Positions 2,798-59,439 are shown, counted from the stretch's first letter. The stretch: 64,000 nt of DNA from a bacterium (GCA_030704665.1 JAUYID010000009.1:857702-921701); one strand, 5' to 3'. A program made the numbers and translations. Notes: a model not told the origin generated them from the letters alone.

Positions 2798-3766
2798 TTG
2801 AAGAGGGACCGAGGATACAAGCTAGTGGTACTTTTAGTCGCTACTGGCGTGATCGCTATTGGTGAAAGACTCCGTCACTGGCTCAAGGATACGAAGAGTG
2901 GCCTGCAGCTTGATGACGATGACCCTGCGGGATTTCATCCTCGTGACGAAATCATCTGGAGACTTGCCCAGGCGGTCATTCTTCCTTTGGGTTACCTGAA
3001 GTGGTGGACTGGCACTCTGGAAGTAAGGGGTAAAGAAAACGTCGAGACGGCTATTGCCAGCCGCAAGGGTACCCAAGTAGTGGGGAACCACAAAGCGATA
3101 CCTGATGCCTTCACTCCCCAAACTGCCATCAGGTTTCTCGGGCATGTCCGACTCGCCGAAGACCATTTTCGCTCTGTCATCGGCATGGTCTTCGTCAACC
3201 GCCGACCCATACTCAGCAAAGTTCTTGAAGGTGGGGACTACATACCCATTGTTCCGGAACGAATGCTCGAAAATGAATTCCTGCGCACCCTGACCCCTGC
3301 CGAACGCAAAACGCATTTGAGAAACGCTAGGCGCATCAATTCCGCAGCTTTCCCACTGATGCGAAAGTTCCTTGGCTTGAGGTACTGGACTCTCCTCTAC
3401 CCCGAGGCAACTCGTGTCTTGGAGCCGGGAATGAAAAAAGTCCATGACGGAGTGGCAACTGCCTTGCGACACCCGGGAACGAACCTTCTGCCCGTAGCCC
3501 AGATCGGCACGGATCAGATGTGGAAGCCTGGGAGTTGGCGACCTCAACCGCTGAGCAAAATCACGGTCATCTTTGGTGAACCGATCAGCTCTGAGGAAGC
3601 CGAGACTCGTGCCCGAAAGATCAGCCAACGCTACGGTGTCAGTGAGGATCGAGCCCTGTGCGATCTGGTCATGCGCCGAATTGCTCGACTCATGATCGAA
3701 AACGGTCACCCGCAGTACGCCGGCTTCTACGCCAAACCTCGCCGCGAACGTCTTGGAGTGAGCTAA
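2798..3766 (+). CDS. 1-acyl-sn-glycerol-3-phosphate (lysophospholipid) acyltransferase family protein
   Basis: TTG start with AAGGAG RBS 8 nt upstream. VVGNHKAIPDAF matches the NHxxxxD acyltransferase motif, plus an N-terminal TM segment. GC roughly 55% against roughly 42% in the core genes (estimated by eye). Confidence 0.55.
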   Translation: MKRDRGYKLVVLLVATGVIAIGERLRHWLKDTKSGLQLDDDDPAGFHPRDEIIWRLAQAVILPLGYLKWWTGTLEVRGKENVETAIASRKGTQVVGNHKAIPDAFTPQTAIRFLGHVRLAEDHFRSVIGMVFVNRRPILSKVLEGGDYIPIVPERMLENEFLRTLTPAERKTHLRNARRINSAAFPLMRKFLGLRYWTLLYPEATRVLEPGMKKVHDGVATALRHPGTNLLPVAQIGTDQMWKPGSWRPQPLSKITVIFGEPISSEEAETRARKISQRYGVSEDRALCDLVMRRIARLMIENGHPQYAGFYAKPRRERLGVS

Positions 3767-3876: not shown

Positions 3877-4092
3877 ATGGCAGAAGAAAATAATTTATTC
3901 AAAGTTCAACATGTTGAAAAGGTAATCAACAACACTGGTTCGGGGGCTATTTACGGTTTGGGCATCATTGGAGCTCTGATTTATTTCTTACAACGAGCTG
4001 ACAGCTTTTGGGCAGTGCTACTGGGAATTGCAAAGGCTGTTTTTTGGCCAGCAGTTATTCTCTATGAAGTTTTGAAGCTTCTAAACTTGTAA
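3877..4092 (+). CDS. small two-TM membrane protein, hypothetical
   Basis: 71-aa ORF; AAGGAGG RBS directly upstream (3862-3868); hydrophobic. Confidence 0.4.
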   Translation: MAEENNLFKVQHVEKVINNTGSGAIYGLGIIGALIYFLQRADSFWAVLLGIAKAVFWPAVILYEVLKLLNL

Positions 4093-4160: not shown

Positions 4161-4946
4161 CTAGTCGGCAGCGAAAACAACGAAGGTAACTAGCTTGTGT
4201 TTCTGACCCAAATCTCTCTGGTAAAGACCCACCCTTCGATTTTTCTTCAGCTCGCGTCCCCACTCTTTTCGAGTCTCAAAATTCTGGTTCTTTTCTCCTT
4301 GGGCTTGTGGAAGTTTTTGGCTGGTAGCTTTGAGGCTAGTGAAACTATCAAGGTGACTATAAATGGTTTCCAGCTCATCATAGTCGTGTTGGTTCGGGTG
4401 TTGGTTAGGCGTCGGCTCACTCGTGTAATCCATGCAACTTCCCAGGGGTAAGTTGTAGAAGTCCTCATCCTGATGATCAAGTCCCAGGGTATGTCCTACC
4501 TCCTGACACATTACCAAATTTCTCCAGCCAGGACTGTTGTAGGTAGAAGTTTTAAAATAGGTATCATTCAGTTTGGTTACTGCTTGAGTGATGTGACCCC
4601 CACTCACCCAAATTTGAGCAAGCCCAAGCCAACCGTTTCTACCGTAGGTGTAGCTACAAACTTCAAGACGCCCAGCTGTCGGCCGACAGCGCCGGGCATT
4701 AGTCGATCCAGCTACAACCGCTAGATCAAGAACTGACGACTGACTCCAGTCAGAGGCGGTAGTCCGCAAATACTGGTCCCAAGCTAGGGAAACGTTGTCT
4801 CCAGTTTTAAGAGTAAAAGGATTGGCTGTTCGTGCCCAATGAAAATTACCCCAAGAGTGGTTTGCCGAAGACAAAGGAGGTGCAATAAGTAAAAAAATCC
4901 AAAAGAAGGATGCTAAAAGCAAAGTTTTTCGGTTTGAAAATTTCAT
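4161..4946 (-). CDS. secreted metzincin-like zinc metalloprotease (variant QExxHxxGxxH motif)
   Basis: N-terminal signal peptide (MKFSNRKTLLLASFFWIFLLIAPPLSSA). Motif QEVGHTLGLDH has the exact HExxHxxGxxH spacing with Q at the first position. A downstream SCMDY looks like a Met-turn. Confidence 0.5.
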   Translation of the reverse strand: MKFSNRKTLLLASFFWIFLLIAPPLSSANHSWGNFHWARTANPFTLKTGDNVSLAWDQYLRTTASDWSQSSVLDLAVVAGSTNARRCRPTAGRLEVCSYTYGRNGWLGLAQIWVSGGHITQAVTKLNDTYFKTSTYNSPGWRNLVMCQEVGHTLGLDHQDEDFYNLPLGSCMDYTSEPTPNQHPNQHDYDELETIYSHLDSFTSLKATSQKLPQAQGEKNQNFETRKEWGRELKKNRRVGLYQRDLGQKHKLVTFVVFAAD

Positions 4947-18452: not shown

Positions 18453-18874
18453 TATTTAGTTTCCTTTTTTGCCGTTGTGGTGGCGGCCTGTTCCATCTTT
18501 ACCAAAACTTCTTTCTTCATCGCTCCAATTGTTACTCTTTTACCTCGTTTTGTTCTTGAGTTACTTTTTGTTCTTTGTCCTCGAACTGGTAGGCTTTTTC
18601 TATGTCTTAAACCACGGTAAGTACCTATGTCCTCCAAACGGCGGATGTTTTGCCCAACCATTCTTCGCAGGTCCCCCTCAACTGGAATTTGCTCAACTGC
18701 TTTTTGGATCTTGGAAAGCTCTTCTTCCGATAAATCTTTGACTCGCTTGTCTGGGTCGATTTTAGCTGTTTCGACAACTTTTTTGGCCAGCGTCGGACCG
18801 ATACCATAGATGTAAGGTAAAGAAAAAACTATTTTTTTGTTGTTTGGCAGTTCAATTCCAGCTATTCTGGCCAT
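18452..18874 (-). CDS. rpsM: 30S ribosomal protein S13
   Basis: [14 protein letters not shown]...; ATG at 18874 (the track ORF uses an upstream TTG). Confidence 0.95.
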
Positions 18875-18912
18875 ATTTAGCAACCTTTAATTCTATAACT
18901 TCTAGTCTAAAA

Positions 18913-18963
18913 ATATCGACCGTAATACTAATTTTTAGTTTTCCAAAAACAACCTTTTGGTCG
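18913..18963 (-). repeat. intercistronic element copy A (rpmJ-rpsM gap): core flanked by 7-bp arms ATCGACC/GGTCGAT
   Basis: Minus-strand sense: ATCGACCAAAAGGTTGTTTTTGGAAAACTAAAAATTAGTATTACGGTCGAT. Begins with an ATG (18975) 6 nt after the rpmJ stop, giving a 41-codon mini-ORF (18850-18975) that runs into rpsM. Confidence 0.6.
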
Positions 18964-18981
18964 ATATAATTGCTCATAGTA

Positions 18982-19095
18982 ACTTAGCCCTGTCGTTGTT
19001 TGTGACGAGGGTTTACACAAATAACAAAAAGCGTTCCTCTACGCTTTACAATTTTACAGTTTATACAACGTTTTTTTATTGATGCTTGCACTTTC
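18982..19095 (-). CDS. rpmJ: 50S ribosomal protein L36 (zinc-ribbon C+ form), GTG start; absent from the ORF track
   Basis: GTG AAA GTG...: (M)[36 protein letters not shown], 37 aa, with the C-x2-C-x12-C-x4-H signature. Confidence 0.85.
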
Positions 19096-19133
19096 ACAGT
19101 AAACAACCTTACTTTCTATGATTTAGTTTAACA

Positions 19134-19173
19134 GTATCGACCGTAATACTAATTTTTAGTTTTCCAAAAACAA
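19134..19173 (-). repeat. intercistronic element copy B (infA-rpmJ gap), first 40 nt identical to copy A, upstream arm replaced
   Basis: 19134-19173 is identical to 18913-18952. The other arm is GCCCGGGG instead of GGTCGAT. Confidence 0.55.
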
Positions 19174-19200
19174 CCCCGGGCAGGTTTACAGTAATCAATG

Positions 19201-25099: not shown

Positions 25100-25405
25100 T
25101 TAAAAACTCTGTTTACATTTTTTGCAAATTCGCAATTTTTCTTTCCCCTTTACTTCAAAACTGACTCTGGTAGGCAAATTGCACTTAGGGCAAACCAAAG
25201 CTACATTACTTATTGCCAAGGGTTTGATGATATCAACTATTCCAGCCTGCGCAACGCCTTTTCTTGATTTCAAATGTTTTTTGTACATATTGATACCGGC
25301 AACAGCTACTTTGGCTTCAGAGGTAAAAACTTTCTCGACTTTACCAGTCTTGCCTTTATCTTTTCCCAAAGTAACTATTACATTGTCACCTCTTTTAATT
25401 TTCAT
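25100..25405 (-). CDS. rplX: 50S ribosomal protein L24 (variant with C-terminal CxxC...CxxC)
   Basis: MKIKRGDNVIVTLGKDKGKTGKV...; the C-terminus CPKCNLPTRVSFEVKGKEKLRICKKC replaces the usual DPKTG...KKSG. Confidence 0.9.
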   Translation of the reverse strand: MKIKRGDNVIVTLGKDKGKTGKVEKVFTSEAKVAVAGINMYKKHLKSRKGVAQAGIVDIIKPLAISNVALVCPKCNLPTRVSFEVKGKEKLRICKKCKQSF

Positions 25406-25428
25406 TTTCGGGCTCCTAGAAAGAAAGC

Positions 25429-25500
25429 ATCGACCAACATATTAATTTTTACTGTCTGTAAAATTGCACCCTGCTTCTCCGAAACAACCTTCTGGTCGAT
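25429..25500 (-). repeat. intercistronic element copy C (rplN-rplX gap), same ATCGACC/GGTCGAT arms, 31-nt insertion in the core
   Basis: ATCGACCAGAAGGTTGTTT[cggagaagcagggtgcaattttacagacagt]AAAAATTAATATGTTGGTCGAT. The 35-codon mini-ORF at 25402-25509 starts 2 nt after the rplN stop, and its TGA overlaps the rplX ATG (ATGA). Confidence 0.55.
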
Positions 25501-25511
25501 ATAGTTCATTC

Positions 25512-32399: not shown

Positions 32400-34502
32400 C
32401 TATTTCGCACCCTTAGCTACAATAGTTGCCCCAATATTTACTGGTACTTCTTGGTAGTGGGACGGTTCCATATTGAAGTTGGCTCTTCCTTGGGTCATAC
32501 TGCGCAAGGCCGTCGCATAACCAAACATTTCGGCCAGGGGTACAATCGCTTTGACTACCCGAGCGTTGCCTCTTTGTTCGCTACCTTCAATCTGGGCTCT
32601 TTTACTGGACAAATCACCAATGACATCGCCCATAAACTCTTCTGGGGTTGTGACTTCAATACGCATAATTGGCTCAAGGATAACAGGCTCTGCTTTGGCA
32701 GCCGCGTCTTTGACCGCCATCGAACCGGCAATTTTAAAGGCCGCCTCAGAGGAATCGACCTCGTGATAACTCCCATCGTAAACCGCAACTTTAAGATCAA
32801 CTGTAGGGAAGCCGGCAACTACTCCATTTTCCAGAGCTTCCTTGATTCCTTTTTCAATCGCTGGAACATACTCTCTAGGAATTGAACCCCCAACTATTTC
32901 AGAAACAAATTCGTAACCTTCGCCCCGCCCTTTTGGTTCAACTCGAACTAAAGCGTGACCGTATTGACCACGGCCTCCAGTTTGCCGAATGTATTTTCCC
33001 TCACCCTGCGCATTCTTTCGAATCGTCTCTTTGTAAGCAACCTGGGGTTTTCCGACGTTGGCCTCAACATTAAATTCTCGTTTCATGCGATCAACGATAA
33101 TTTCCAGATGCAACTCTCCCATTCCGGAAATGATCGCTTGTCCGGTGTCTTGATCAGTTTTCATGCGGAAAGTTGGATCTTCTTCGGCTAGTTTAGCTAG
33201 AGAAAGTCCCATTTTTTCTTGGTCAGCCTTGGTTTTGGGCTCAATTGCCAAAGAAATCACCGGCTCGGGAAATTTAATTGCTTCCAAAACAATTGGTTTC
33301 TCTTCAGCACAAAGAGTGTCCCCAGTGAAAGTATCTCTCAATCCCACTGCTGCCCCGATCTCACCAGCACCAATTTCGGTAATTTCTTCCCGTGTGTTGG
33401 CGTGCATCAGCAGTATACGTCCCACTCGTTCGCGGGTCGATTTTGTAGAGTTGTAGATGTAAGAACCAGCCGTCATTTTCCCTGAATAAACTCGAAAATA
33501 AGTCAGTCGCCCCACAAAAGGATCAGTCATGACTTTGAAAGCGAGAGCAGCAAAAGGCTCATCGGCACTGGTTTTCCTTTCCTCTTCACTACCGATTTTC
33601 GGATTTAGACCTTTAACTGCTTCTTTGTCCAATGGGGAAGGAAGGTAGTCAACTACTGCATCCAACAGGGGCTGAACTCCTTTATTTTTCAGTGCTGAAC
33701 CAGCCATAACGGGAATAAGTTTGTACGCCAAAGTCGCACTACGAAGACCAGATTTTAATTCTTCTTCGGAAAGCTCTTTACCATCCAAATATTTTTCCAA
33801 AAGCTCGTCGCTCTGCTCGGCGATTGCTTCAACCAGTTTTGAGCGGAACTCTTCAACTTTGTCTTTCATTTCCGCTGGAACCTCACCTATTGTTGGTTCT
33901 TTAGCCATTTCTTCAGTGTAGGTGATTGCTTTGCGGGTGATGAGGTCGACCATACCTTTAAAACCCTGCTCTTCGCCAATTGGAAGCTGAATTGGATGGG
34001 CATTGGCTCCAAGGCGTTCTTTGATAGAAGCTAAACTCATGTAAAAATCTCCGCCGGTGGCGTCGAGTTTGTTGATGAAACAAATTCGGGGGACGTTGTA
34101 TTTGTCAGCTTGGCGCCAAACTGTTTCGCTTTGAGGCTCAACTCCCATCTTGCCGTCGAAAACTACCACCCCACCGTCAAGAACCCGTAGGGAACGCTCT
34201 ACTTCAGCGGTAAAGTCAACGTGCCCCGGGGTATCAATAATATTGATGCGGTGCTTGACACCAGCGTTGGGGCCTTCCTTCGTCTCCCAAAAAGCGGTGG
34301 TCGCAGCCGAAGTGATCGTAATTCCTCGCTCCCGCTCCTGAGCCATCCAGTCCATGACCGCGGCTCCCTCATGAACTTCCCCAATTTTGTAAGTTTTTCC
34401 AGTATAAAAGAGGATACGCTCAGTCACCGTGGTTTTCCCGGCATCAATGTGAGCGATAATCCCAATATTGCGAATTTTGTCTAAACCAACTTCTTTAGCC
34501 AT
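32400..34502 (-). CDS. fusA: elongation factor G
   Basis: 700 aa; [21 protein letters not shown]. Confidence 0.98.
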
Positions 34503-34692
34503 AAAATTTCCAAACTAGGACCAAAAACAAAACAACAACGAAAATCAAAATTATTTTCCAAAACTCAGCGTGGATCGGCTTTCCACCTTTTCTCAACCAA
34601 GGAGAGACTGTATTAGCTCTTTCAACCTTTGCTTCGAGTTCATTTATCTCCGTATTCAAGTCTTCAACCGAACTAGTTTCTTTTTCCATCAA
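34495..34692 (-). CDS. small C-terminally anchored single-TM protein, hypothetical (between rpsG and fusA)
   Basis: 65-aa ORF, overlaps the fusA start by 8 nt. Acidic/coiled N-terminus plus a hydrophobic tail ([15 protein letters not shown]). Confidence 0.35.
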
Positions 34693-34738
34693 AAAACACC
34701 TCTTCGGTGCTCTTGGCAGTTAGTTTTTAACTGCCGTT

Positions 34739-36330: not shown

Positions 36331-36650
36331 TGGCTGCGGTGGTCTTAACCAAAGTCAAAATCTATTCAACCCTCTGGTCAAAAGTCAAAGGAGTGATCGG
36401 AGAATCTGAACCAAAGGGGTTTGGGGAGGGAGTTGCTTTACCAGGGGTCAATTCGATTCATACTTTCTTTGTCTCTTTTCCAATTGACCTTGTCTTTCTG
36501 GACAAAGGTAATCGAATAACTAGGTTGGTAGACGGTCTGAAACCATGGCGAGTCTCGCCTCTTGTTTTCCAAGCCAAAACAACCCTAGAATTAAAGACGG
36601 GCTCGATCAAACACCTGGGTTTAAAGCTAGGAGATCAAGTAAAGTATTAG
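36330..36650 (+). CDS. DUF192 family protein
   Basis: IHTFFVSFPIDLVFLD matches the DUF192 signature. Confidence 0.6.
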   Translation: MAAVVLTKVKIYSTLWSKVKGVIGESEPKGFGEGVALPGVNSIHTFFVSFPIDLVFLDKGNRITRLVDGLKPWRVSPLVFQAKTTLELKTGSIKHLGLKLGDQVKY

Positions 36651-39600
36651 GCTTCAGCGACTAGTTCTTTGCTGACTTTAGGCTCTTTTTTAGTTTCTTT
36701 TTCAGTAACCTCAGCTTCAGCAATATCTACTTCTTCAGCTGCCACAACCGGAGTTTCTTCAAGATTTTCTACTTTGGCAGTAAGTCGTGCACTTTCACCA
36801 GTAGGAATGAGACGACCAATGATAACGTTTTCTTTAAGTCCTCTCAGGTAATCAATTTTTCCGCTAGTCGCAGCGTCGGTCAGAACTGAAGTAGTCTCTT
36901 GGAAAGAAGCTGCGGATAAAACTGATTCGGTATAAAGAGCCGCTCTGGTAATTCCCAGGATAACAACAGCCGCGGTTGCTGGTTCTCCACCTTGGGCCAA
37001 AACCTTGGCGTTTTCTTCAGCAAAGCGGACTTTGTCCACCAACTCTCCGGGTAGAAGCGCAGTGTTTCCGGAAGTTTCAATTCGAACTTTTTCGCTCATT
37101 TTTCTGACAATTGTCTCAAAGTGTTTGTCGTTGATTGGAGCTCCCTGAGATTCGTAAACTTTCTGCAACTCTCCAATCACGTATTGCTGAACCGCACGAA
37201 TCCCTTTTGTCTCAAGCAAGGTTTTCAGGTCTAAATGCCCGCTCGTGAGCGGGTCTCCAGCTTCAACTTGGTCATCATCTTTGACTCGAAGCTCACTTGT
37301 AACTGGGATGACGTATTCTTTTTCCACTTTTGAACCCTTGTCGCTAGCAGTGATTCGAACCTTTCTTCCCTCATCACTATCAACAACCGCTACTTTACCA
37401 GGGAGTTCGCTGATAACCGCTGGGGTCTTTGGTGTGCGAGCCTCAAAAATTTCATCGACACGTGGCAGACCCTGAGTGATATCCAAACCAATGATACCTC
37501 CCAAATGGAAAGTCCTCATCGTCAACTGAGTTCCAGGCTCTCCAATTGATTGGGCAGCAATGACCCCAACAGGAGTTCCCATACCTACTACTTTTTTGGT
37601 TGAAAGATCACGTCCGTAACAGGACTGGCAAACCCCGAACTTAGTTTCACAAGTGAGAACCGAACGCATCAAAGCTTCTTTTACCTCTGCTTTTTCCAAG
37701 TCAGCCAGGTCTTCCTCAGCCACGATGACACCAGCTTTTTTGGCCACTTTTCCATTTTTCCCTTTTATAGCTACTGCCGCGACCCTACCGACTAGTCTTT
37801 CCAAAAACTTCCCGGGCCGCTCCTCTTCCTGCCGGAAAAGAAGACCTTCTTTGGTTCCACAATCTTCTTCTCTGATCAATAGATCATGGGCCACATCAAC
37901 CAAACGTCGGGTGAGATAACCTGCATCCGCGGTTTTGAGAGCTTTGTCCACTAGTCCTTTTCTGGCTCCTCGAGTTGAAGTGAAATATTCGTAAACATCG
38001 AGACCTTCCCGGTAGTTACTTTTTTGGGGTAATTCCACAATTCGGCCAAGAGGGTCTGCGATCAGTCCTCTCATTCCAGCTAGTTGTTTGATCTGGTCCC
38101 GACTACCGCGTGCCCCAGATTCTTGCATCATTTTCAACGGGTTGTTGGGGCTGAGATTTCTCCAGGTTAGTTCGTCAATTTCCGTGGTTAGTTCTGCCCA
38201 AAGTTCCTCTGAAAGTCGTACCTTTTCTGTTTCCGTGATCAAACCACGACGCAAGTTTTTTTCAATTTCTTCAACTTTTTTGTCTGTTTGAGCAATCAAT
38301 TTTGCTTTGTTGGGAATAATCTCGCAATCAGTGATCGACATTGAAAGCCCTGATTCAGTTACATACAAAAAGCCAAGATCTTTCAAGTCGTCAATCATTT
38401 TTACCGTCCGGTCTTTGCCAAGTAAATTTTGGCTTTTACTAAACAGACCCTTCAAGATTGGTCCTTTCACCAAATCGTTGAAGTAGCGCAGCTCTTCAGG
38501 CAAGGCTAGATTAAAAAGTAATCTTCCCACTGTAGTTTTGAGCACCTCACCTTTGTAAAAAAGGTTTATCGGCTCTTGAACTGAGATTTTTCCAGATTGA
38601 TAAGCAGTAATTGCATTTTCTTCTGAGTAAAGTCCCTTGGGTTCAGCCTCAAGCATTTTAGTTAAATAAAAACAGCCAAGAAAAACGTCTTGTTTTGGAG
38701 TCATGATTGGCTCACCGTCCGCAGGTCGAAGCAGGTTGTTGGTTGACATCATCAGGTTAATTGCCTCCTCCTGGGACGCCATTGACAAAGGAACATGAAT
38801 CGCCATTTGGTCCCCATCAAAATCAGCTCCATAACCAGTAGTGACGGAAGGGTGAATACCAATGGCACTCCCTTCGGTCAGAATTGGAAAGAAAGCCTGC
38901 ATACCCAGACGGTGTAGGGTTGGAGCCCGGTTCAGAAGAACAGGGTGGTTTTTGGTGATTGCCTCCAAAATATCCCAGACTTCAGTTCCTCGTCGTTCAA
39001 AAACATGTTTCGCACTTTTTACGTTGGGGGCATACCCCTGGAAAATAAGTTCTCGCAAAACAAAGGGCTTGAAAAGCTCCAAAGCCATTTCTTTTGGTAG
39101 TCGACATTCATTTAGTTTAATGTCTGGTGCGACAATAATTACACTTCGTCCAGAATAATCAACTCTTTTTCCGAGAAGGTTCTGGCGAAAACGTCCTTGT
39201 TTACCTTTAAGCATGTCGGAAAGCGAGCGCAGTTGTTGGACTCCGGCTCGAGTAGTAGTTGGTCTTTGACTTGCATCAATAAGCGCGTCAACAGCTTCTT
39301 GAAGCATTCTCTTTTCATTTCGCAAAATGATTTCTGGAGCTCCGAGATCCGTTAGTCTCTTTAGCCGGTTGTTGCGGTTGATGACGCGACGATATAGGTC
39401 ATTTAAATCACTTGTCGCAAACCTTCCCCCTGAGAGCTGGACCATTGGTCGCAAATCAGGTGGAATGACCGGTAAAGATTCAAGAATCATCCAGTCCAAT
39501 TTAATATCGGCGTTGCGAAAACCCTCGACAACACGTAGTCTTTTTGTCGCTTTCAACTGCTTTTGTCCAGTTGAGTTTTGGAATTCTTCCCTCAACCCTC

Positions 39601-40441
39601 GCGCAAGCTCATTCAAATCGAGAGTTTTCAGTATTTCCAGCAAGGCTTCTGCCCCCATTCCAACTTTCATAAAACCTTCGACCTTGTAGTCGGCAAGCCT
39701 CTGATACTCGTCTTCCGAAAGTAGGGACATTTTCTTGATTGTCTTGATACGGTCAGAAAGAGTTTTGCTAATCTCTTCAACACGAGCCATCTCTGCCGCT
39801 TCCTCTTCTTTGAGAGACGCTAGGCGTGCTTTTTCTTTCAGTTTCAGCTCATCAACGATCAACTCCCGTTGCTCTTTGTTTTTTACCCCAACTTTTTCAA
39901 CCTCTTCTTTGACTTCCTTGTCAATTTCCTTGCTCCGTTCTTCAAATTCTTTCTTTACTTCTTCTTGGCGGTTTTTGACTTCTTCGCTGAGTGAAGAAAG
40001 AGCCTGCGCTCTTTTGTCCTCATCGGTATCTACCACTAGATATTCTGCAAAATAAACAACCGCATCCAGGCTACGGGGGGTAATGTCAAGTAGTTGGGAG
40101 AGTTTGCTTGGAGTTCCTTTGAAAAACCAAACGTGAGCTACTGGAGCAGCAAGCTTGATATGACCCATTCTTTCGCGACGTACTTTGGACTGGGTAACCT
40201 CAACTCCACACTTGTCACAAATAACTCCGCGGTAACGAATTCTTTTGTATTTTCCACAATAACATTCCCAATCTTTGGTTGGCCCAAAGATTTTCTCATC
40301 AAAAAGCCCATCCTTTTCTGGTTTAAAGGTTCGGTAGTTTATGGTTTCTGGTTTGGTAACTTCCCCGTGAGACCAAGACTTGATGTCTTCCGGACTTGCC
40401 AGAATTATTCTTAAAGCTGCGAAATCTTTGACTTCATTCAT
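36647..40441 (-). CDS. rpoC: DNA-directed RNA polymerase beta' subunit
   Basis: 1264 aa; NADFDGD motif, zinc fingers. Confidence 0.98.
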   Translation of the reverse strand: MNEVKDFAALRIILASPEDIKSWSHGEVTKPETINYRTFKPEKDGLFDEKIFGPTKDWECYCGKYKRIRYRGVICDKCGVEVTQSKVRRERMGHIKLAAPVAHVWFFKGTPSKLSQLLDITPRSLDAVVYFAEYLVVDTDEDKRAQALSSLSEEVKNRQEEVKKEFEERSKEIDKEVKEEVEKVGVKNKEQRELIVDELKLKEKARLASLKEEEAAEMARVEEISKTLSDRIKTIKKMSLLSEDEYQRLADYKVEGFMKVGMGAEALLEILKTLDLNELARGLREEFQNSTGQKQLKATKRLRVVEGFRNADIKLDWMILESLPVIPPDLRPMVQLSGGRFATSDLNDLYRRVINRNNRLKRLTDLGAPEIILRNEKRMLQEAVDALIDASQRPTTTRAGVQQLRSLSDMLKGKQGRFRQNLLGKRVDYSGRSVIIVAPDIKLNECRLPKEMALELFKPFVLRELIFQGYAPNVKSAKHVFERRGTEVWDILEAITKNHPVLLNRAPTLHRLGMQAFFPILTEGSAIGIHPSVTTGYGADFDGDQMAIHVPLSMASQEEAINLMMSTNNLLRPADGEPIMTPKQDVFLGCFYLTKMLEAEPKGLYSEENAITAYQSGKISVQEPINLFYKGEVLKTTVGRLLFNLALPEELRYFNDLVKGPILKGLFSKSQNLLGKDRTVKMIDDLKDLGFLYVTESGLSMSITDCEIIPNKAKLIAQTDKKVEEIEKNLRRGLITETEKVRLSEELWAELTTEIDELTWRNLSPNNPLKMMQESGARGSRDQIKQLAGMRGLIADPLGRIVELPQKSNYREGLDVYEYFTSTRGARKGLVDKALKTADAGYLTRRLVDVAHDLLIREEDCGTKEGLLFRQEEERPGKFLERLVGRVAAVAIKGKNGKVAKKAGVIVAEEDLADLEKAEVKEALMRSVLTCETKFGVCQSCYGRDLSTKKVVGMGTPVGVIAAQSIGEPGTQLTMRTFHLGGIIGLDITQGLPRVDEIFEARTPKTPAVISELPGKVAVVDSDEGRKVRITASDKGSKVEKEYVIPVTSELRVKDDDQVEAGDPLTSGHLDLKTLLETKGIRAVQQYVIGELQKVYESQGAPINDKHFETIVRKMSEKVRIETSGNTALLPGELVDKVRFAEENAKVLAQGGEPATAAVVILGITRAALYTESVLSAASFQETTSVLTDAATSGKIDYLRGLKENVIIGRLIPTGESARLTAKVENLEETPVVAAEEVDIAEAEVTEKETKKEPKVSKELVAEA

Positions 40442-40467
40442 AGTTTTTTTCCGCTTTCAATTGAAAT

Positions 40468-40515
40468 ATCAACCGCAGTACAAATTTTTAAGTTTTTCAA
40501 AAACCAGCCGTTGAT
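40468..40515 (-). repeat. intercistronic element copy D (rpoB-rpoC gap), arms ATCAAC/GTTGAT
   Basis: ATCAACGGCTGGTTTTTGAAAAACTTAAAAATTTGTACTGCGGTTGAT. The 30-codon mini-ORF at 40438-40530 has its ATG overlapping the rpoB TGA (ATGA) and its TGA overlapping the rpoC ATG (ATGA). Confidence 0.6.
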
Positions 40516-40526
40516 TGATAATTCGT

Positions 40527-43500
40527 TCATTCAACAACTTCCTCTTTCAGCTGTTTTTCAGTTGGTTCTTCAACTTCTTCTTTATTTGTTGCCTTGGCTT
40601 CTTCGTTTCCTTCCTCAATCTCAAGAGGAGAATTCTTACTTTCTATTTCCTCAACAGAAGCTTCTATTTCTTCCCCCGCTGCTACGGCAAGTTCTTGACC
40701 AGCTTCTTCAGCTTTGGCCTCTTCAACAAGTTCTTTGGTAGTTTCTGGCTTCTCCTCTTCGATTTGCGCTCCCAAAAGCTCGACTTTTAACCCGAGCCCG
40801 TTCAACTCTTTGACCAAAACTTTAAACGATTCCGGAACAGTTGATTCAGGAATATCAGTTCCCTTGACAATGGCTTCAAAAGCTTTGGCTCGACCAACTA
40901 CATCATCAGATTTTATGGTCAGCATCTCCTGTAAGGTGTGAGAAGCACCATAAGCTTCTAGGGCCCAGACCTCCATTTCCCCTAGCCTCTGGCCTCCCAT
41001 TTGAGCTTTTCCTCCCAACGGTTGTTGAGTGACCAAAGAGTACGGTCCAGTACTACGCGCATGAACTTTTTCATCAACCATGTGAACAAGTTTCATGATG
41101 TAACTGACACCAACCGTGATTGGGTTGGCAAAAACTTCCCCGGTTTTTCCGTTGTAGAGAGTCACTTTTCCACTGACCGGCAAACCAGCTTTTTTCAGTT
41201 CTTCTTCGATTTCTTCTTCTTTAGCACCACCGAAAGCGGGGATGGCGGCGTTGTAACCCTGTTTGGCAGCGGCCCAACCCAAGTGTGTTTCGAGTAGCTG
41301 GCCCAGATTCATACGAGAAATGATTGAGAGTGGTGAAAGAATAATATCAATCGGAGTTCCATCCTCAAGATGAGGCATATCTTCAATCGGAACTACTTTG
41401 GAAATTACTCCTTTGTTTCCGTGACGCCCCGCCAGCTTGTCTCCAACAGTAATTTTTCTTGTTTGGGCAACTTTTACTTTGATCAAGCGCTGGACCCCAG
41501 GTTCAATCTCATCGCCAGCCTCCTTGGAAAGAATTTGTACTCCAACCACAGTTCCACTTTCTCCGTGAGGCATACGCAAAGATGTATCCCGTACTTCACG
41601 TGCTTTTTCACCAAAAATAGCTCTGAGTAACCTTTCCTCAGCAGTAAGCTCGGTTTCTCCTTTAGGGGTAATTTTTCCCACCAAAATATCGTTTGGACCA
41701 ACCTCAGCTCCGATGTAAACAATCCCTTGTTCGTCGAGATTGGCCAAAGCCTCTTCTCCAACGTTCGGAATATCTCGCGTGGTTTCTTCAGGACCTAGTT
41801 TAGTTTCAGTCACAGAAGCTTCAAACTCTTCAATGTGGATTGAAGTCAAAAGGTCTTCTTGCACCAGTCTTTCTGAAATAATAACCGCGTCTTCATAGCC
41901 GTAACCCTCCCAAGACATGTAGGCTATAAGTAAGTTTTGTCCCAAAGCGAGCTCTCCGTTTTCAGAAACTGGTCCATCAGCGACAATTTGGCCTTTTTTG
42001 ACCTTTTCACCTATTTTGGCAATTGCCTTTTGAGTGTAAGCAGTATTTTGATTTGATTTAACAAACTTAGAAAGCTCAAGAGTGTATTCTTTTTTACCGG
42101 CTTCTTCGATTTTTATCATTTGACCGTCTACATAGCTGACTCGACCATCAACCGGACTCATGAGTACTCGTCCCATGTTTTCAGCTACAACGCTCTCCAT
42201 GCCTGTCCCAACGATGGGCGCCCTTGGTTTGATCAGAGGAACAGCCTGAGCTTGCATATTCGCTCCCATCAAAGCTCGGTTCGCATCGTCGTGGGCTAAG
42301 AAAGGAATCAGTGAACTAGAAGCACCAACGATCTGCCAAGGGACAACATCGATAAAATCTACTTGAGAAGAAAGGGCGGTAGTAAAAGAAGCTTTATGTC
42401 GGACCGGGACACGACTGTCCAAAATGTAACCTTTCTTGTCGAGACTAATATTTGCATGGGTGATAAAATATTGCTCTTCATCATCGGCCATCATCCAAAC
42501 AATTTCGTCAGTGACCCGAGCCTTACCGTCTTTTGTTTTCTCAACCTTTCGATAAGGGGTTTCCAAAAAGCCATATTCGTTGATTCTTCCCATCAAGGCC
42601 AGGTGAGTGATCAATCCAATGTTTGGCCCTTCCGGGGATTTGATTGGATCAATACGACCGTACTGGGAGTTGTTGATGTCATGAACTGAGAAACTAGCTC
42701 TTTCGCGAGTCAAACCACCTGGCCCCATCACAGAAAGACGGCGCAAATGTTCAAGCTCGGAAAGGGAATTAATCTGGTCCATAAACTGCGAGAGCTGTGA
42801 GCCAGCAAAGAATTCGTTCAACCGCGCTACCACAGGTCGAGCGTTGATCAGTGAGGTTGGAGTGACCATAGTCAGATCAGCTGAAATACTCATTCTTTCT
42901 TTGACCACCCGTTCCATCTGCAACAAACCAACTCGCAAAACGTTCTGGACTAGCTCACCAACCGTTCGAACACGTCGGTTTCCGAGATGATCAATATCAT
43001 CGGCTTCTCCTTGACCGTTGTTGAGCTGAATCAAAAATCTAGTGGCCGCAATGATGTCATCTTGTGTCAAGATCCAGTGCTCAGAATCGTTGGTAACCTC
43101 AATTCCCAATCTCTTGTTGAGCTTGTAACGACCCACTTTCCCCAAACTGTAGCGCCGAGGATTGAAGAAAAGGTTTTCGAGTAGAACTTTGGCATTTTCC
43201 AAAATTGCAGGGTCTCCGGGGCGCATTTTGTGATAAATCTCAAGATAAGCTTCGTCAGGACCACTAGTCGAATCCTTGGCTAGAGTCGTATCAATGTAGT
43301 GGTGGTCTTCGTTCTTGTCTACTTCAGAGAAAAGTTCTCGTATTTTTTCATCTGACCCAAAGCCAATTGCTCGCAACAAGGTCGTTGCCGGAATGCGACG
43401 TTTTCGGTCGATTCTCACGGTCAGAAGGTCGTTTTTCGCGGTTTCAAACTCAAGCCAACTACCTCGGGTCGGCCGCAGCTCTGCTTTAAACAAGGCTCTT

Positions 43501-43937
43501 CCTGTCGCCGGCTCAATCTCAGCAGAATAGAAAATTCCCGGACTTCGAGTAAGTTGGGTAACCACCACTCTTTCGACACCGTTGATGATGAAGGTACCGG
43601 AAGTGGTCATGAGGGGAACATCACCCAAAAAGACCTCTTGCTCAAGAGTTTCTCCGGTTTCTTTGTTCAGCAAACGAGTTTTGACTCGGAGTGGAGCTGA
43701 GTAAGTAACACCTTTCTCAATTGCTTTGATAGGGTCGTATTTTGGTTCTCCGAGACTGTGCTCGAGAAAATAAAGAGAGAAGTTTTTCCCAGTAAAATCT
43801 TCAATTGGGCTGACTTCAGCAAGTAAATCGGCAATACCTTCTTTGATTAGCCAATCGTAGGATCTAATTTGTGGTTCTATTAAGTTGGGCAAAGGAAATT
43901 CATGACCTGCTGTCCCAAAGATTCGGCGAGAGCTCAT
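40527..43937 (-). CDS. rpoB: DNA-directed RNA polymerase beta subunit (acidic C-terminal tail)
   Basis: 1136 aa; rpoB signatures. Confidence 0.98.
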   Translation of the reverse strand: MSSRRIFGTAGHEFPLPNLIEPQIRSYDWLIKEGIADLLAEVSPIEDFTGKNFSLYFLEHSLGEPKYDPIKAIEKGVTYSAPLRVKTRLLNKETGETLEQEVFLGDVPLMTTSGTFIINGVERVVVTQLTRSPGIFYSAEIEPATGRALFKAELRPTRGSWLEFETAKNDLLTVRIDRKRRIPATTLLRAIGFGSDEKIRELFSEVDKNEDHHYIDTTLAKDSTSGPDEAYLEIYHKMRPGDPAILENAKVLLENLFFNPRRYSLGKVGRYKLNKRLGIEVTNDSEHWILTQDDIIAATRFLIQLNNGQGEADDIDHLGNRRVRTVGELVQNVLRVGLLQMERVVKERMSISADLTMVTPTSLINARPVVARLNEFFAGSQLSQFMDQINSLSELEHLRRLSVMGPGGLTRERASFSVHDINNSQYGRIDPIKSPEGPNIGLITHLALMGRINEYGFLETPYRKVEKTKDGKARVTDEIVWMMADDEEQYFITHANISLDKKGYILDSRVPVRHKASFTTALSSQVDFIDVVPWQIVGASSSLIPFLAHDDANRALMGANMQAQAVPLIKPRAPIVGTGMESVVAENMGRVLMSPVDGRVSYVDGQMIKIEEAGKKEYTLELSKFVKSNQNTAYTQKAIAKIGEKVKKGQIVADGPVSENGELALGQNLLIAYMSWEGYGYEDAVIISERLVQEDLLTSIHIEEFEASVTETKLGPEETTRDIPNVGEEALANLDEQGIVYIGAEVGPNDILVGKITPKGETELTAEERLLRAIFGEKAREVRDTSLRMPHGESGTVVGVQILSKEAGDEIEPGVQRLIKVKVAQTRKITVGDKLAGRHGNKGVISKVVPIEDMPHLEDGTPIDIILSPLSIISRMNLGQLLETHLGWAAAKQGYNAAIPAFGGAKEEEIEEELKKAGLPVSGKVTLYNGKTGEVFANPITVGVSYIMKLVHMVDEKVHARSTGPYSLVTQQPLGGKAQMGGQRLGEMEVWALEAYGASHTLQEMLTIKSDDVVGRAKAFEAIVKGTDIPESTVPESFKVLVKELNGLGLKVELLGAQIEEEKPETTKELVEEAKAEEAGQELAVAAGEEIEASVEEIESKNSPLEIEEGNEEAKATNKEEVEEPTEKQLKEEVVE

Positions 43938-44050: not shown

Positions 44051-44079
44051 ATAATACCCAAAAGAATACTTCCTGTCAA
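44051..44079 (-). promoter_or_regulatory. consensus sigma-70 promoter (TTGACA-17-TATTAT) upstream of rpoB
   Basis: Minus strand: -35 at 44079-44074, -10 at 44056-44051, about 115 nt upstream of the rpoB ATG. Confidence 0.5.
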
Positions 44080-50924: not shown

Positions 50925-51812
50925 CTAGGGGAAGCTTTTTTCGATCGTTTCCCCTTCTTTACCCAAAATTGACTCTTTCCCCTCAAAGGTAGTTGTAGTT
51001 GAGCCGGCGTTGTGACTGATTAAGCGTATTCTTCTTTCGGCCTGAAAGACTCTTTCCGCCCCAGAGGCCAAAACCCCTTCAAAGGAAATTTTGCCGTCAA
51101 CCTCAGCACTGATACTGACTGCGTTTGGTCCAATTTTTATTTTCAGCTCAACTTTTGTTTTTGGGGGCGGTTCATTTTCAGTTTTTGGACTAACTACTAG
51201 CGTTCGCTTTTCAGTAGAAATTTTTCCAAAACGATTGGCGGCAGTGACAGTGATCGTGTTGACCCCTTCCGGGAGACTAACCGCAACTGAAAAACTTCCA
51301 CCTGGATCAAGCTGCACTTCCTGACCGTTAATTTTCAAAATCGCGTCAGGCCAGGTGCGACCAACTACATTGGCTTGATCTCCTTGGATTTTCGTATTGT
51401 CCTTTGGTTCTACGACCTCTAGAAAAGGTGTGCCAGTGAAGCTTCGATACTGAACAAAGAGATAACCGAGGACGAGACTCATCACGACAAGGGCGACAAA
51501 ACCAGTCACCCAACGAGGAGTCAGACGGAAGCTGGAGGGGTTTTTCAGGATCGTTCGGCGAGGTAGGACAACTTTCTTCTCGTCAAACTCACGGCGGTAG
51601 AAAGCGAGGACATCCTCAGCCGAGATCCCAAGAAATTTTCCATAATTTTTAAGTAAACCTCTGACGAAAATCGGCGAGGGAAGGGCTTGCCAAACCCCCT
51701 CCTCAAGAAGAAGTAGAGTTTTTTTGCGAATCTTGGTGGCTTGTTCGACGTCTTCAAGGCTCAAGCCCTTGTTTTTTCTGGCTTCCGAAAGGATTTGTCC
51801 TACCCGTTTCAC
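50925..51812 (-). CDS. rodZ: RodZ-like cytoskeleton protein (HTH plus TM plus C-terminal Ig-like domain)
   Basis: GTG start; HTH (LSLEDVEQATKIRKKTL); TM; beta-rich C-terminus. Confidence 0.7.
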   Translation of the reverse strand: MKRVGQILSEARKNKGLSLEDVEQATKIRKKTLLLLEEGVWQALPSPIFVRGLLKNYGKFLGISAEDVLAFYRREFDEKKVVLPRRTILKNPSSFRLTPRWVTGFVALVVMSLVLGYLFVQYRSFTGTPFLEVVEPKDNTKIQGDQANVVGRTWPDAILKINGQEVQLDPGGSFSVAVSLPEGVNTITVTAANRFGKISTEKRTLVVSPKTENEPPPKTKVELKIKIGPNAVSISAEVDGKISFEGVLASGAERVFQAERRIRLISHNAGSTTTTFEGKESILGKEGETIEKSFP

Positions 51813-51841
51813 GATTTTACTTTCCCAAAAGTAAGAGCAGT

Positions 51842-51892
51842 ATCGCGCGCATAATAAATTTTTAGTTTTTCAAAAACAAGCCTTAGCGCGAT
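51842..51892 (-). repeat. intercistronic element copy E (ftsK-rodZ gap), arms ATCGCGC/GCGCGAT
   Basis: ATCGCGCTAAGGCTTGTTTTTGAAAAACTAAAAATTTATTATGCGCGCGAT; no in-frame ATG start in this copy. Confidence 0.55.
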
Positions 51893-51926
51893 ATAAACTT
51901 TTTTTAATATATTAGCTTAGTTGCTT

Positions 51927-59312: not shown

Positions 59313-59338
59313 TTACTTTTAAGCTGGAAAAGAGTGAG

Positions 59339-59393
59339 GAACCAACGTGACCAAAAATTCTTTCTTTTTAAGAAACCTTGGTTACATCGGTTC
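59339..59393 (-). promoter_or_regulatory. long imperfect hairpin in the rpsO-pnp intergenic leader (candidate RNase III/autoregulatory site)
   Basis: GAACCGATGTAACCAAGG...24 nt...TTGGTCACGTTGGTTC on the transcript strand (roughly 13 of 16 positions pair, by eye). Confidence 0.4.
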
Positions 59394-59439
59394 AATCACT
59401 TCTTTCCAAAACCTCCTTTTTTAATTTTTAAATTTTAAT

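Follow-up and report, generated by a model that had tools for sequence, protein, structure and literature searches.

REP/BIME sequences are extragenic palindromes mobilised by RAYT transposases; they occur in both orientations and in clusters, without start-codon brackets or a bridging open reading frame (ORF). Delivery of ribosomes by a short ORF is exemplified by tap-repA of plasmid R1. MIRUs (mycobacterial interspersed repetitive units) are said to have been described originally by Supply et al. in 1997 (Mol Microbiol 26:991), and Rickettsia palindromic elements were reportedly described by Ogata et al. in 2000. According to a more recent source, MIRUs are short repeats in the intercistronic gaps of operons, oriented with the genes and apparently inserted at start codons, and the MIRU ORF is coupled to the downstream gene with a -4 spacing, an arrangement read as keeping the insertion's impact on expression to a minimum (PMC12548453). 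The same source treats short-ORF ribosome delivery and bicistronic design, in which the stop codon overlaps the next start, inhibitory structure is melted and the peptide is irrelevant (PMC12548453). Rickettsia palindromic elements, as presented in a further source, are inserted in frame inside coding sequence, become part of the host protein and are tolerated in essential genes because they are translatable (PMC10969869). Here we describe a repeat from a bacterial DNA stretch of 64,000 nucleotides (GCA_030704665.1 JAUYID010000009.1:857702-921701; the window), one copy of which lies between rpoB and rpoC and forms a 30-codon mini-ORF. The reading we favour, with a probability of roughly 0.58 on the sequence evidence, is that a MIRU-like repeat sits at the start codon of rpoC and that its ORF relays ribosomes, preserving an older direct coupling.

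The spacer between rpoB (1136 aa, with the Pfam domains of orthologues; 40527..43937, minus strand) and rpoC (1264 aa; 36647..40441, minus) is 85 nt long and is filled entirely by the mini-ORF (40438..40530, minus), which starts with ATG, reads MNELSINGWFLKNLKICTAVDISIESGKKL and ends in TGA. An ATGA with -4 spacing marks each end. At 40527..40530 (minus) the mini-ORF ATG (40530-40528) shares TG with the rpoB TGA (40529-40527), and at 40438..40441 (minus) the mini-ORF TGA (40440-40438) shares TG with the rpoC ATG (40441-40439). The mini-ORF frame differs from that of rpoB, which terminates at its own TGA. This anatomy had been noticed by an earlier interpretation of the DNA by itself (the sequence-only reading), and it is exact. 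Many native junctions in the window are overlaps of -4 or -1 (for example 7610/7613, 22434/22437, 45451/45454, 20727 and 22988), and a relay would therefore reuse the normal coupling grammar of the genome. A GAGGA Shine-Dalgarno (SD) sequence in the 3' end of rpoB (40540..40544, minus) stands 9 nt before the mini-ORF ATG, and the energy of the anti-SD duplex is -6.0 kcal/mol for the mini-ORF against -3.5 kcal/mol for the upstream region of rpoC itself.

Searches with RpoC and SecY place the window in Candidatus Woykebacteria (Patescibacteria), which is uncultured, and contigs of close relatives were reached through protein look-ups. In the three closest relatives, whose RpoC is 83-85% identical, the repeat is absent at rpoB|rpoC. 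The junction reads ...TCCTAAaatATGAATGAA in the first, with TAAaatATG and a 3-nt gap; ...GTTTAGgaaggactATGAACGAA in the second, with TAG and ATG 8 nt apart; and ...AAAAAATGAATGAA in the third, with a 4-nt ATGA overlap. In the window it reads ...GAGGAAGTTGTTGAATGA, an 89-nt insert and ATGAATGAAGTC, such that the mini-ORF ATG occupies the old start position of rpoC; the GAGGA 9 nt ahead of it is the one that acts as SD of rpoC in the relatives. The spacer is thus almost certainly an inserted copy of the repeat. The sequence-only reading had proposed that the double overlap enforces strict translational coupling of the beta and beta' subunits, and had suggested comparing rpoB-rpoC spacers among related genomes. 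That comparison recovers the shared start and SD position, finds the repeat in none of the three closest relatives, and does not support the claim of enforced coupling: these relatives have tighter, direct junctions without the repeat. The mini-ORF is best read as damage limitation after insertion rather than as an evolved stoichiometry device. An insertion within an older rpoB 3' end, suggested by the likeness of GAAAGCGGAAAAAAACTATGA to GAAGAGGCAAAAAAATGA of L141, was considered and dropped, the same tail position being homologous to AGGAGC..GAAAATG tails elsewhere.

The spacer is a member of a repeat family, as had also been proposed, and five copies in the window were detected by repeat search, nhmmer and a covariance model. 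Ten copies were found in total, the others comprising two on further contigs of the same sample and three in two related genomes. The repeat is specific to a single lineage of Candidatus Woykebacteria. Its copies are about 85-110 nt long with 25-39% GC, and each sits between the stop and the start of co-directional genes in operons. The window copies, all on the minus strand, lie at rpoB|rpoC (c40450; 40442..40530, that is 89 nt from the mini-ORF ATG to the base before the rpoC ATG, with the covariance-model core at 40462-40526), rplN|rplX (c25400; 25402..25509, core 25423-25507), rpmJ|rpsM (c18900; 18852..18977, core 18909-18972), infA|rpmJ (c19120; 19109..19198, core 19130-19192) and the junction of ftsK with a RodZ-like gene (c51830; 51809..51899, core 51836-51899). 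Contigs L137 and L146 of the window-genome sample carry copies at hrcA|grpE (L137c) and between mreB and a glycosyltransferase gene (GT4; L146c), respectively; L137 and the window are 100% identical across an 11.9-kb overlap. All ten copies are sense-oriented, with covariance-model scores of 56-86 bits in the sense direction and 19-20 bits on the reverse strand. There is one unit per junction and no tandem array, the copies with cores at 18909-18972 and 19130-19192 being kept apart by rpmJ.

The occupied junctions differ between genomes. Relative L144 carries copies at rplW|rplB (L144a) and infA|rpmJ (L144b) and relative L145 at rpsK|rpsD (L145c); in relatives, rplN|rplX has gaps of 2-4 nt and rpmJ|rpsM short gaps without the repeat. 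Such scattered occupancy beside clean empty sites points to mobility. For about 100 kb of the 938-kb genome, the gene tables list no transposase. When filled and empty sites are compared (rpoB|rpoC, rplN|rplX, rpmJ|rpsM and rplW|rplB), the left start codon of the filled site coincides with the start position of the gene in the empty one. The left ATG may belong to the element, since ATGA(A/G)C..TATATCG is shared between copies. A possible target-site duplication, ATGAA or a 9-bp ATGAAYGAA, flanks both sides at rpoB|rpoC and rplN|rplX and does not fit the other sites. The start codon of rpmJ itself is GTG in the two genomes in which infA|rpmJ is filled (window 19095-19097; L144:11628) and ATG in three in which it is empty (L143, L145 and L148).

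At rplN|rplX the ORF (35 aa) starts with an ATG 2 nt after the rplN TGA and ends in an ATGA overlap on rplX; at rpmJ|rpsM (41 aa) the rpmJ stop is followed after 6 nt by the ATG, and the ORF reaches 20 nt into rpsM; and at infA|rpmJ in the window it runs from a TTG 2 nt after the infA stop to 14 nt before the rpmJ GTG. The rplW|rplB copy of L144 starts in a TAATG overlap and ends 8 nt inside rplB, and the rpsK|rpsD copy of L145 starts with a TTG 2 nt past the stop and ends 14 nt before the next start. Counting c40450, the bridging copies thus number six among the nine that were found by DNA alone; their canonical start is at most 6 nt from the upstream stop, which it overlaps in two of them, and their own stop falls between 14 nt before and 20 nt after the downstream start. 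The mreB|GT4 copy, the one located via its ORF, also bridges, from an ATG 14 nt after the stop to an ATGA overlap. Among element-free co-directional spacers of 50-181 nt from the same genomes, which served as controls, 2 of 17 are bridged (Fisher p=0.008 against 6/9), and one of these two may be a remnant of the repeat.

These ORFs do not follow one frame. The rpoB|rpoC copy reads its 5' half in a shifted frame, L145c and L146c read their 3' halves in other frames, and the rplN|rplX copy has indels of -3 and +21. At rpoB|rpoC an extra T at 40491, before the core, removes an in-frame TAA, as is seen by direct reading of the sequence. A rival explanation is that the ORF is incidental. The repeat would then be a selfish or structural REP-type palindrome whose stem-loop acts on DNA or mRNA in mobilisation, processing or stabilisation, its core closing only the other two frames, and rpoC would start from its own A-rich leader. 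We regard this as possible, at clearly lower odds than a relay. It does not readily account for the excess of bridging over the control spacers, for ORFs that survive frame changes and in-frame indels, for start codons that fall precisely on the former start position, after the former SD, or for the NTGA that overlaps the downstream start at the end of 4 of the 10 copies.

Several observations weigh against the relay, many of them favouring an incidental ORF. Dinucleotide-preserving shuffles of the 85-nt spacer with fixed flanks yield some bridging ORF in 40% of cases and the exact double-ATGA ORF in 19%; the rpoB|rpoC mini-ORF taken singly is therefore not beyond chance, and the bridging pattern beats chance across the repeat family only, not in this single copy. 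Over the spacers, the shuffle expectation of a bridging ORF is 2-40% each, and such statistics overstate significance because the copies are homologous and the trials not independent. Of the ten copies, three lack a complete ORF: at ftsK|rodZ-like an open frame ending in a GTGA overlap has GTT in place of a start, the hrcA|grpE copy has no ORF, its frame being closed, and the infA|rpmJ copy of L144 has a perfect stem with all frames closed, so that the stem can outlive the ORF. Sampling enters as well. Nine of the ten copies were found by DNA alone, whereas L146c was found via its ORF and is a biased addition, as are two more called family mini-ORFs from other metagenome contigs, P0244 (MKTYIDQEVVSEKLKIDFTVEIFSQGARKWQ) and P0245 (MEIYIDQEVVFEKLKLINITIDIFSRTQK), which were likewise found via their ORFs. 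The -3.5 kcal/mol of the rpoC upstream region is about the genome median, and rpoC could initiate independently because an average-strength SD and an A-rich leader lie upstream of it. The one-way orientation could also come from a strand bias of insertion rather than from function.

A null that allows for homology was obtained from neutral decay of an ORF-bearing ancestor at 10, 20 and 30% substitution. The ORF is retained in 44% of cases at 10% substitution, giving P(>=6 of 9)=0.15; in 25% at 20% substitution (P(>=6 of 9)=0.009); and in 17% at 30% substitution (P(>=6 of 9)=0.0014). The core differs from the consensus by 3-31%, about 19% on average. Should the copies be young, at 10% divergence, six of nine is unremarkable, and at such low divergence the null is not rejected, as an incidental ORF would have it. 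Selection for a translatable ORF, at p of about 0.01-0.15 depending on the null, is suggestive, not decisive.

Orthologous spacers that conserve the stem and core without the frame or overlaps had been named in the sequence-only reading as evidence that would tell against it, and here the outcome is divided. At infA|rpmJ, the sole clearly orthologous site, L144 keeps the stem with its frames closed and the window copy keeps the ORF, having lost the 5' stem arm. The rplW|rplB spacer of L147, possibly orthologous, is 84 nt long and holds a TAATG-initiated 31-codon ORF with the same end inside rplB and a similar tail, with no recognisable stem or core, and its homology to the repeat is unproven. 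Serial double reinitiation, the other part of that reading, is allowed by the anatomy; a translated relay is favoured by the comparative evidence, namely the ATG at the rpoC start of the relatives behind their SD and the bridging of most copies in different frames, and the notion of a strict-coupling device is not.

L147 has further bridging mini-ORFs: at 3126-3209, 4035-4089 and 4724-4764 there are ORFs of 31 aa (rplW|rplB), 15 aa (rplB|rpsS) and 17 aa (rplV|rpsC), and the rplW|rplB tail TTTCTTCTTGCAAGGAG..ATG is similar to the repeat's short tail. Either older, diverged copies or a habit general to the clade may explain them.

The repeat has the consensus TATATCGACC-AAAAGGTT-GTTTT-TGR-AAAAC-TAAAAATTWGTATTAC-GGTCGATAT, followed by a tail with the SD of the next gene. 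Its outer stem, P1, is 9 bp long. Over the ten copies, P1 positions pair in 89.9% of cells, compared with 31-46% when the partner is slid; three pairs are changed on both sides, and P1 is recovered by RNAalifold. The compensatory variants are CGCGC/GCGCG in the ftsK|rodZ-like copy (two pairs) and CAAT/GTTG at rpoB|rpoC in place of the family CGAC/GTCG, and the inner hairpin P2 (GTTTY/RAAAC) shows a T-A to C-G exchange. That compensatory changes in the stem alter the encoded residues fits an incidental ORF, and the stem more likely serves the element, in its spread or in RNA stability, than the host. Within c40450 (minus strand throughout) the P1 5' arm, TATCAATC, at 40513..40520 is weakened; the 3' arm, GGTTGATA, lies at 40467..40474, the P2 hairpin, GTTTT-TGA-AAAAC, at 40492..40504 and the conserved core, TAAAAATT, at 40483..40490. 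The minimum-free-energy fold of this copy lacks P1, the rpoB 3' end pairing instead with the 5' arm around the AUG. Here, then, the ORF is better kept than the stem, which argues against an incidental ORF.

Tails containing AGGAGC or TAAGGTTG are common to copies at different loci, as are, each in turn, tails ending ..AGGAGCnnGAAAATG and ..ATAGAAAGTAAGGTTGTTTAnnATG. The repeat thus carries its own SD and spacing along. Directly after the ORF-less hrcA|grpE copy, a tandem direct repeat of GCAGAGCGCGAAGCGATCTA (x2) occupies L137:1262-1316 within the spacer.

Conserved residues in the products raise the question of a small protein-coding gene family, in which a peptide of roughly 30-40 aa (M-x-YIDQKVV-x-KLK-x-TVDIF) would be the functional product. 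YIDQ(K/E)VV..KLK..TVDIF is indeed common to several copies, and five members have been called by gene callers. Against this, the shared residues (YID.., ..VDI) are the translated palindromic arms TATATCGACC and GGTCGATAT; c40450, L145c and L146c read half of the repeat in another frame, leaving the c40450 peptide only 28% identical to that of the rpmJ|rpsM copy; compensatory stem changes swap residues (DQ to AL, TVD to ARD); no Pfam match exists; and it is the neighbouring gene that determines length and C-terminus. The 30-aa product of the rpoB|rpoC copy matches no called gene in a collection of 15 billion proteins. Because frames differ, motifs are translated arms and Pfam is silent, the pattern speaks for indifference to peptide sequence rather than for a functional peptide, and we consider a coding family highly improbable.

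A portable transcription signal is scarcely more credible. On that account the repeat would provide rpoC and the other genes downstream with an internal promoter, or would be a terminator or attenuator. Its AT-rich conserved core does lie upstream of genes, and the genome uses canonical sigma-70-type hexamers, such as the promoter-like TTGACA-17-TATTAT upstream of rpoB (44051..44079, minus). A scan of the sense strand of the rpoB-rpoC spacer, on the other hand, gave no promoter-like and no terminator-like match, and on that empty scan a promoter or terminator role was rejected. Moreover, no hexamer pair at 16-18 nt spacing is conserved across copies, most copies have no U-run after the stem, and neither the window, at gathering scores, nor 40380-40600, at E<=1, matched any Rfam family.

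Searches beyond the close relatives were unproductive. The nearest GTDB representative, 61% identical in the RpoC N-terminus, has no copies, and none was present at 80 rpoC loci of GTDB representative genomes. Neither L147 (SecY 70% identical) nor L148 (a contig of 4.7 kb) shows a recognisable copy. When JGI metagenomes were scanned for the core GTTTTTGRAAAAC(N)TAAAAATT, 56 matches came up, none with a stem; these are chance matches or coding matches reading VFEKLKI. In the window, a covariance-model match at 59335-59398 was ruled out as a family copy, being an unrelated hairpin. It is a long hairpin, AGTGATTGAACCGATGTAACCAAGG...TTGGTCACGTTGGTTCCTCACT, in the rpsO|pnp spacer (minus strand) with a weak match of 15.8 bits, and is perhaps a processing stem of the pnp-leader type. 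Several GTDB metagenome-assembled genome records nearest by RpoC are titled 'uncultured Gammaproteobacteria' or 'Dehalococcoidales' (L001, L004, L005, L007 and others) and are probably mislabelled.

We return to the relay, which for the mini-ORF itself we hold to be somewhat better than an even bet on the comparative sequence evidence. In the mechanism that we propose, the repeat would be co-transcribed with rpoBC, and a ribosome ending rpoB at the UGA would restart at the overlapping AUG, aided by GAGGA 9 nt upstream. The ribosome would then translate 30 codons, melting hairpins and local structure en route, terminate where the UGA and the rpoC AUG overlap, and restart there. The ORF would thus serve as a relay, indifferent to its peptide, by which the insertion stays neutral for the synthesis of beta-prime, and mycobacterial MIRUs have been proposed to act likewise.

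If the relay is right, selfish DNA can colonise even rpoB|rpoC, the most constrained junction of a streamlined genome, lying between its two largest RNA polymerase subunits, provided that ribosomes can pass, and the MIRU strategy would have arisen independently in a very distant phylum. The same junctions with and without insert in sister genomes would be natural, testable parts for bicistronic coupling, and would give a handle on translational coupling in Patescibacteria, where genetics is not yet possible. For annotation, mini-ORFs of this kind are systematically missed or called at random.

A broader and more speculative idea, which we entertain only tentatively, is that the family is an undescribed mobile element of the candidate phyla radiation that homes to start codons at operon junctions and is translationally transparent. 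The transparency would lie in its own start, open frame, portable Shine-Dalgarno sequence and stop overlapping the host start. Its hairpin and core would be either the recognition site for the mobilisation machinery or an RNA-level control point that has been adopted in ribosomal-protein and RNA polymerase operons. Were such an element real, the MIRU strategy would have been invented independently in ultra-small genomes, and a mechanism of insertion that targets start codons would be implied.

A different leader ORF lies at rpsG|fusA (window 34495-34738, minus strand; L138:15733-15801; L141:15844-16246). Its position is conserved, its length varies, and it ends 8 nt inside fusA (..TATGGCTAA). 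In the window the leader encodes 64 aa and is hydrophobic at the C-terminus; in L138 it consists of 7 codons (MENKKYG), and in L141 of 83 and 49 aa. Two hairpins precede it, at 34735-34715 and at 34709-34697, the second followed by T6, and look like a terminator or attenuator.

How does the Woykebacteria repeat compare with the described systems? REP/BIME sequences resemble it as short palindromes that closely follow stop codons in transcribed intergenic regions, with compensatory changes that keep the stem. It differs from them in being single, sense only and bracketed by start codons, with a bridging ORF; about 100 kb of the lineage showed no RAYT gene. MITEs (miniature inverted-repeat transposable elements), too, are small, non-autonomous repeats that can sit inside operons. 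In the Woykebacteria repeat, by contrast, the inverted repeat is internal, conserved sequence continues past the stem for 3-9 nt on its 5' side and 20-40 nt on its 3' side, there is no clear target-site duplication beyond the start codon, and only one orientation occurs. Rickettsia palindromic elements share with it the character of a palindromic selfish repeat that stays translatable, whereas the Woykebacteria repeat lies between genes with its own start and stop.

The closest parallel is with MIRUs, which like the Woykebacteria repeat are dispersed between cistrons in the sense orientation, have a coupled ORF and appear to be inserted at start codons. The Woykebacteria repeat, unlike MIRUs, occurs as single units and not as tandem arrays (variable-number tandem repeats), has a covarying 9-bp stem with a small internal hairpin, and brings a tail that bears a Shine-Dalgarno sequence. 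It is also AT-rich and belongs to Patescibacteria, whereas MIRUs are GC-rich and belong to Actinomycetota; judged by this composition (25-39% GC), sequence homology between the two is unlikely. Lastly, short-ORF ribosome delivery and bicistronic designs are single, locus-specific leaders or engineered parts, whereas the Woykebacteria repeat is dispersed and, at rpoB|rpoC, places two couplings in series between two long genes.

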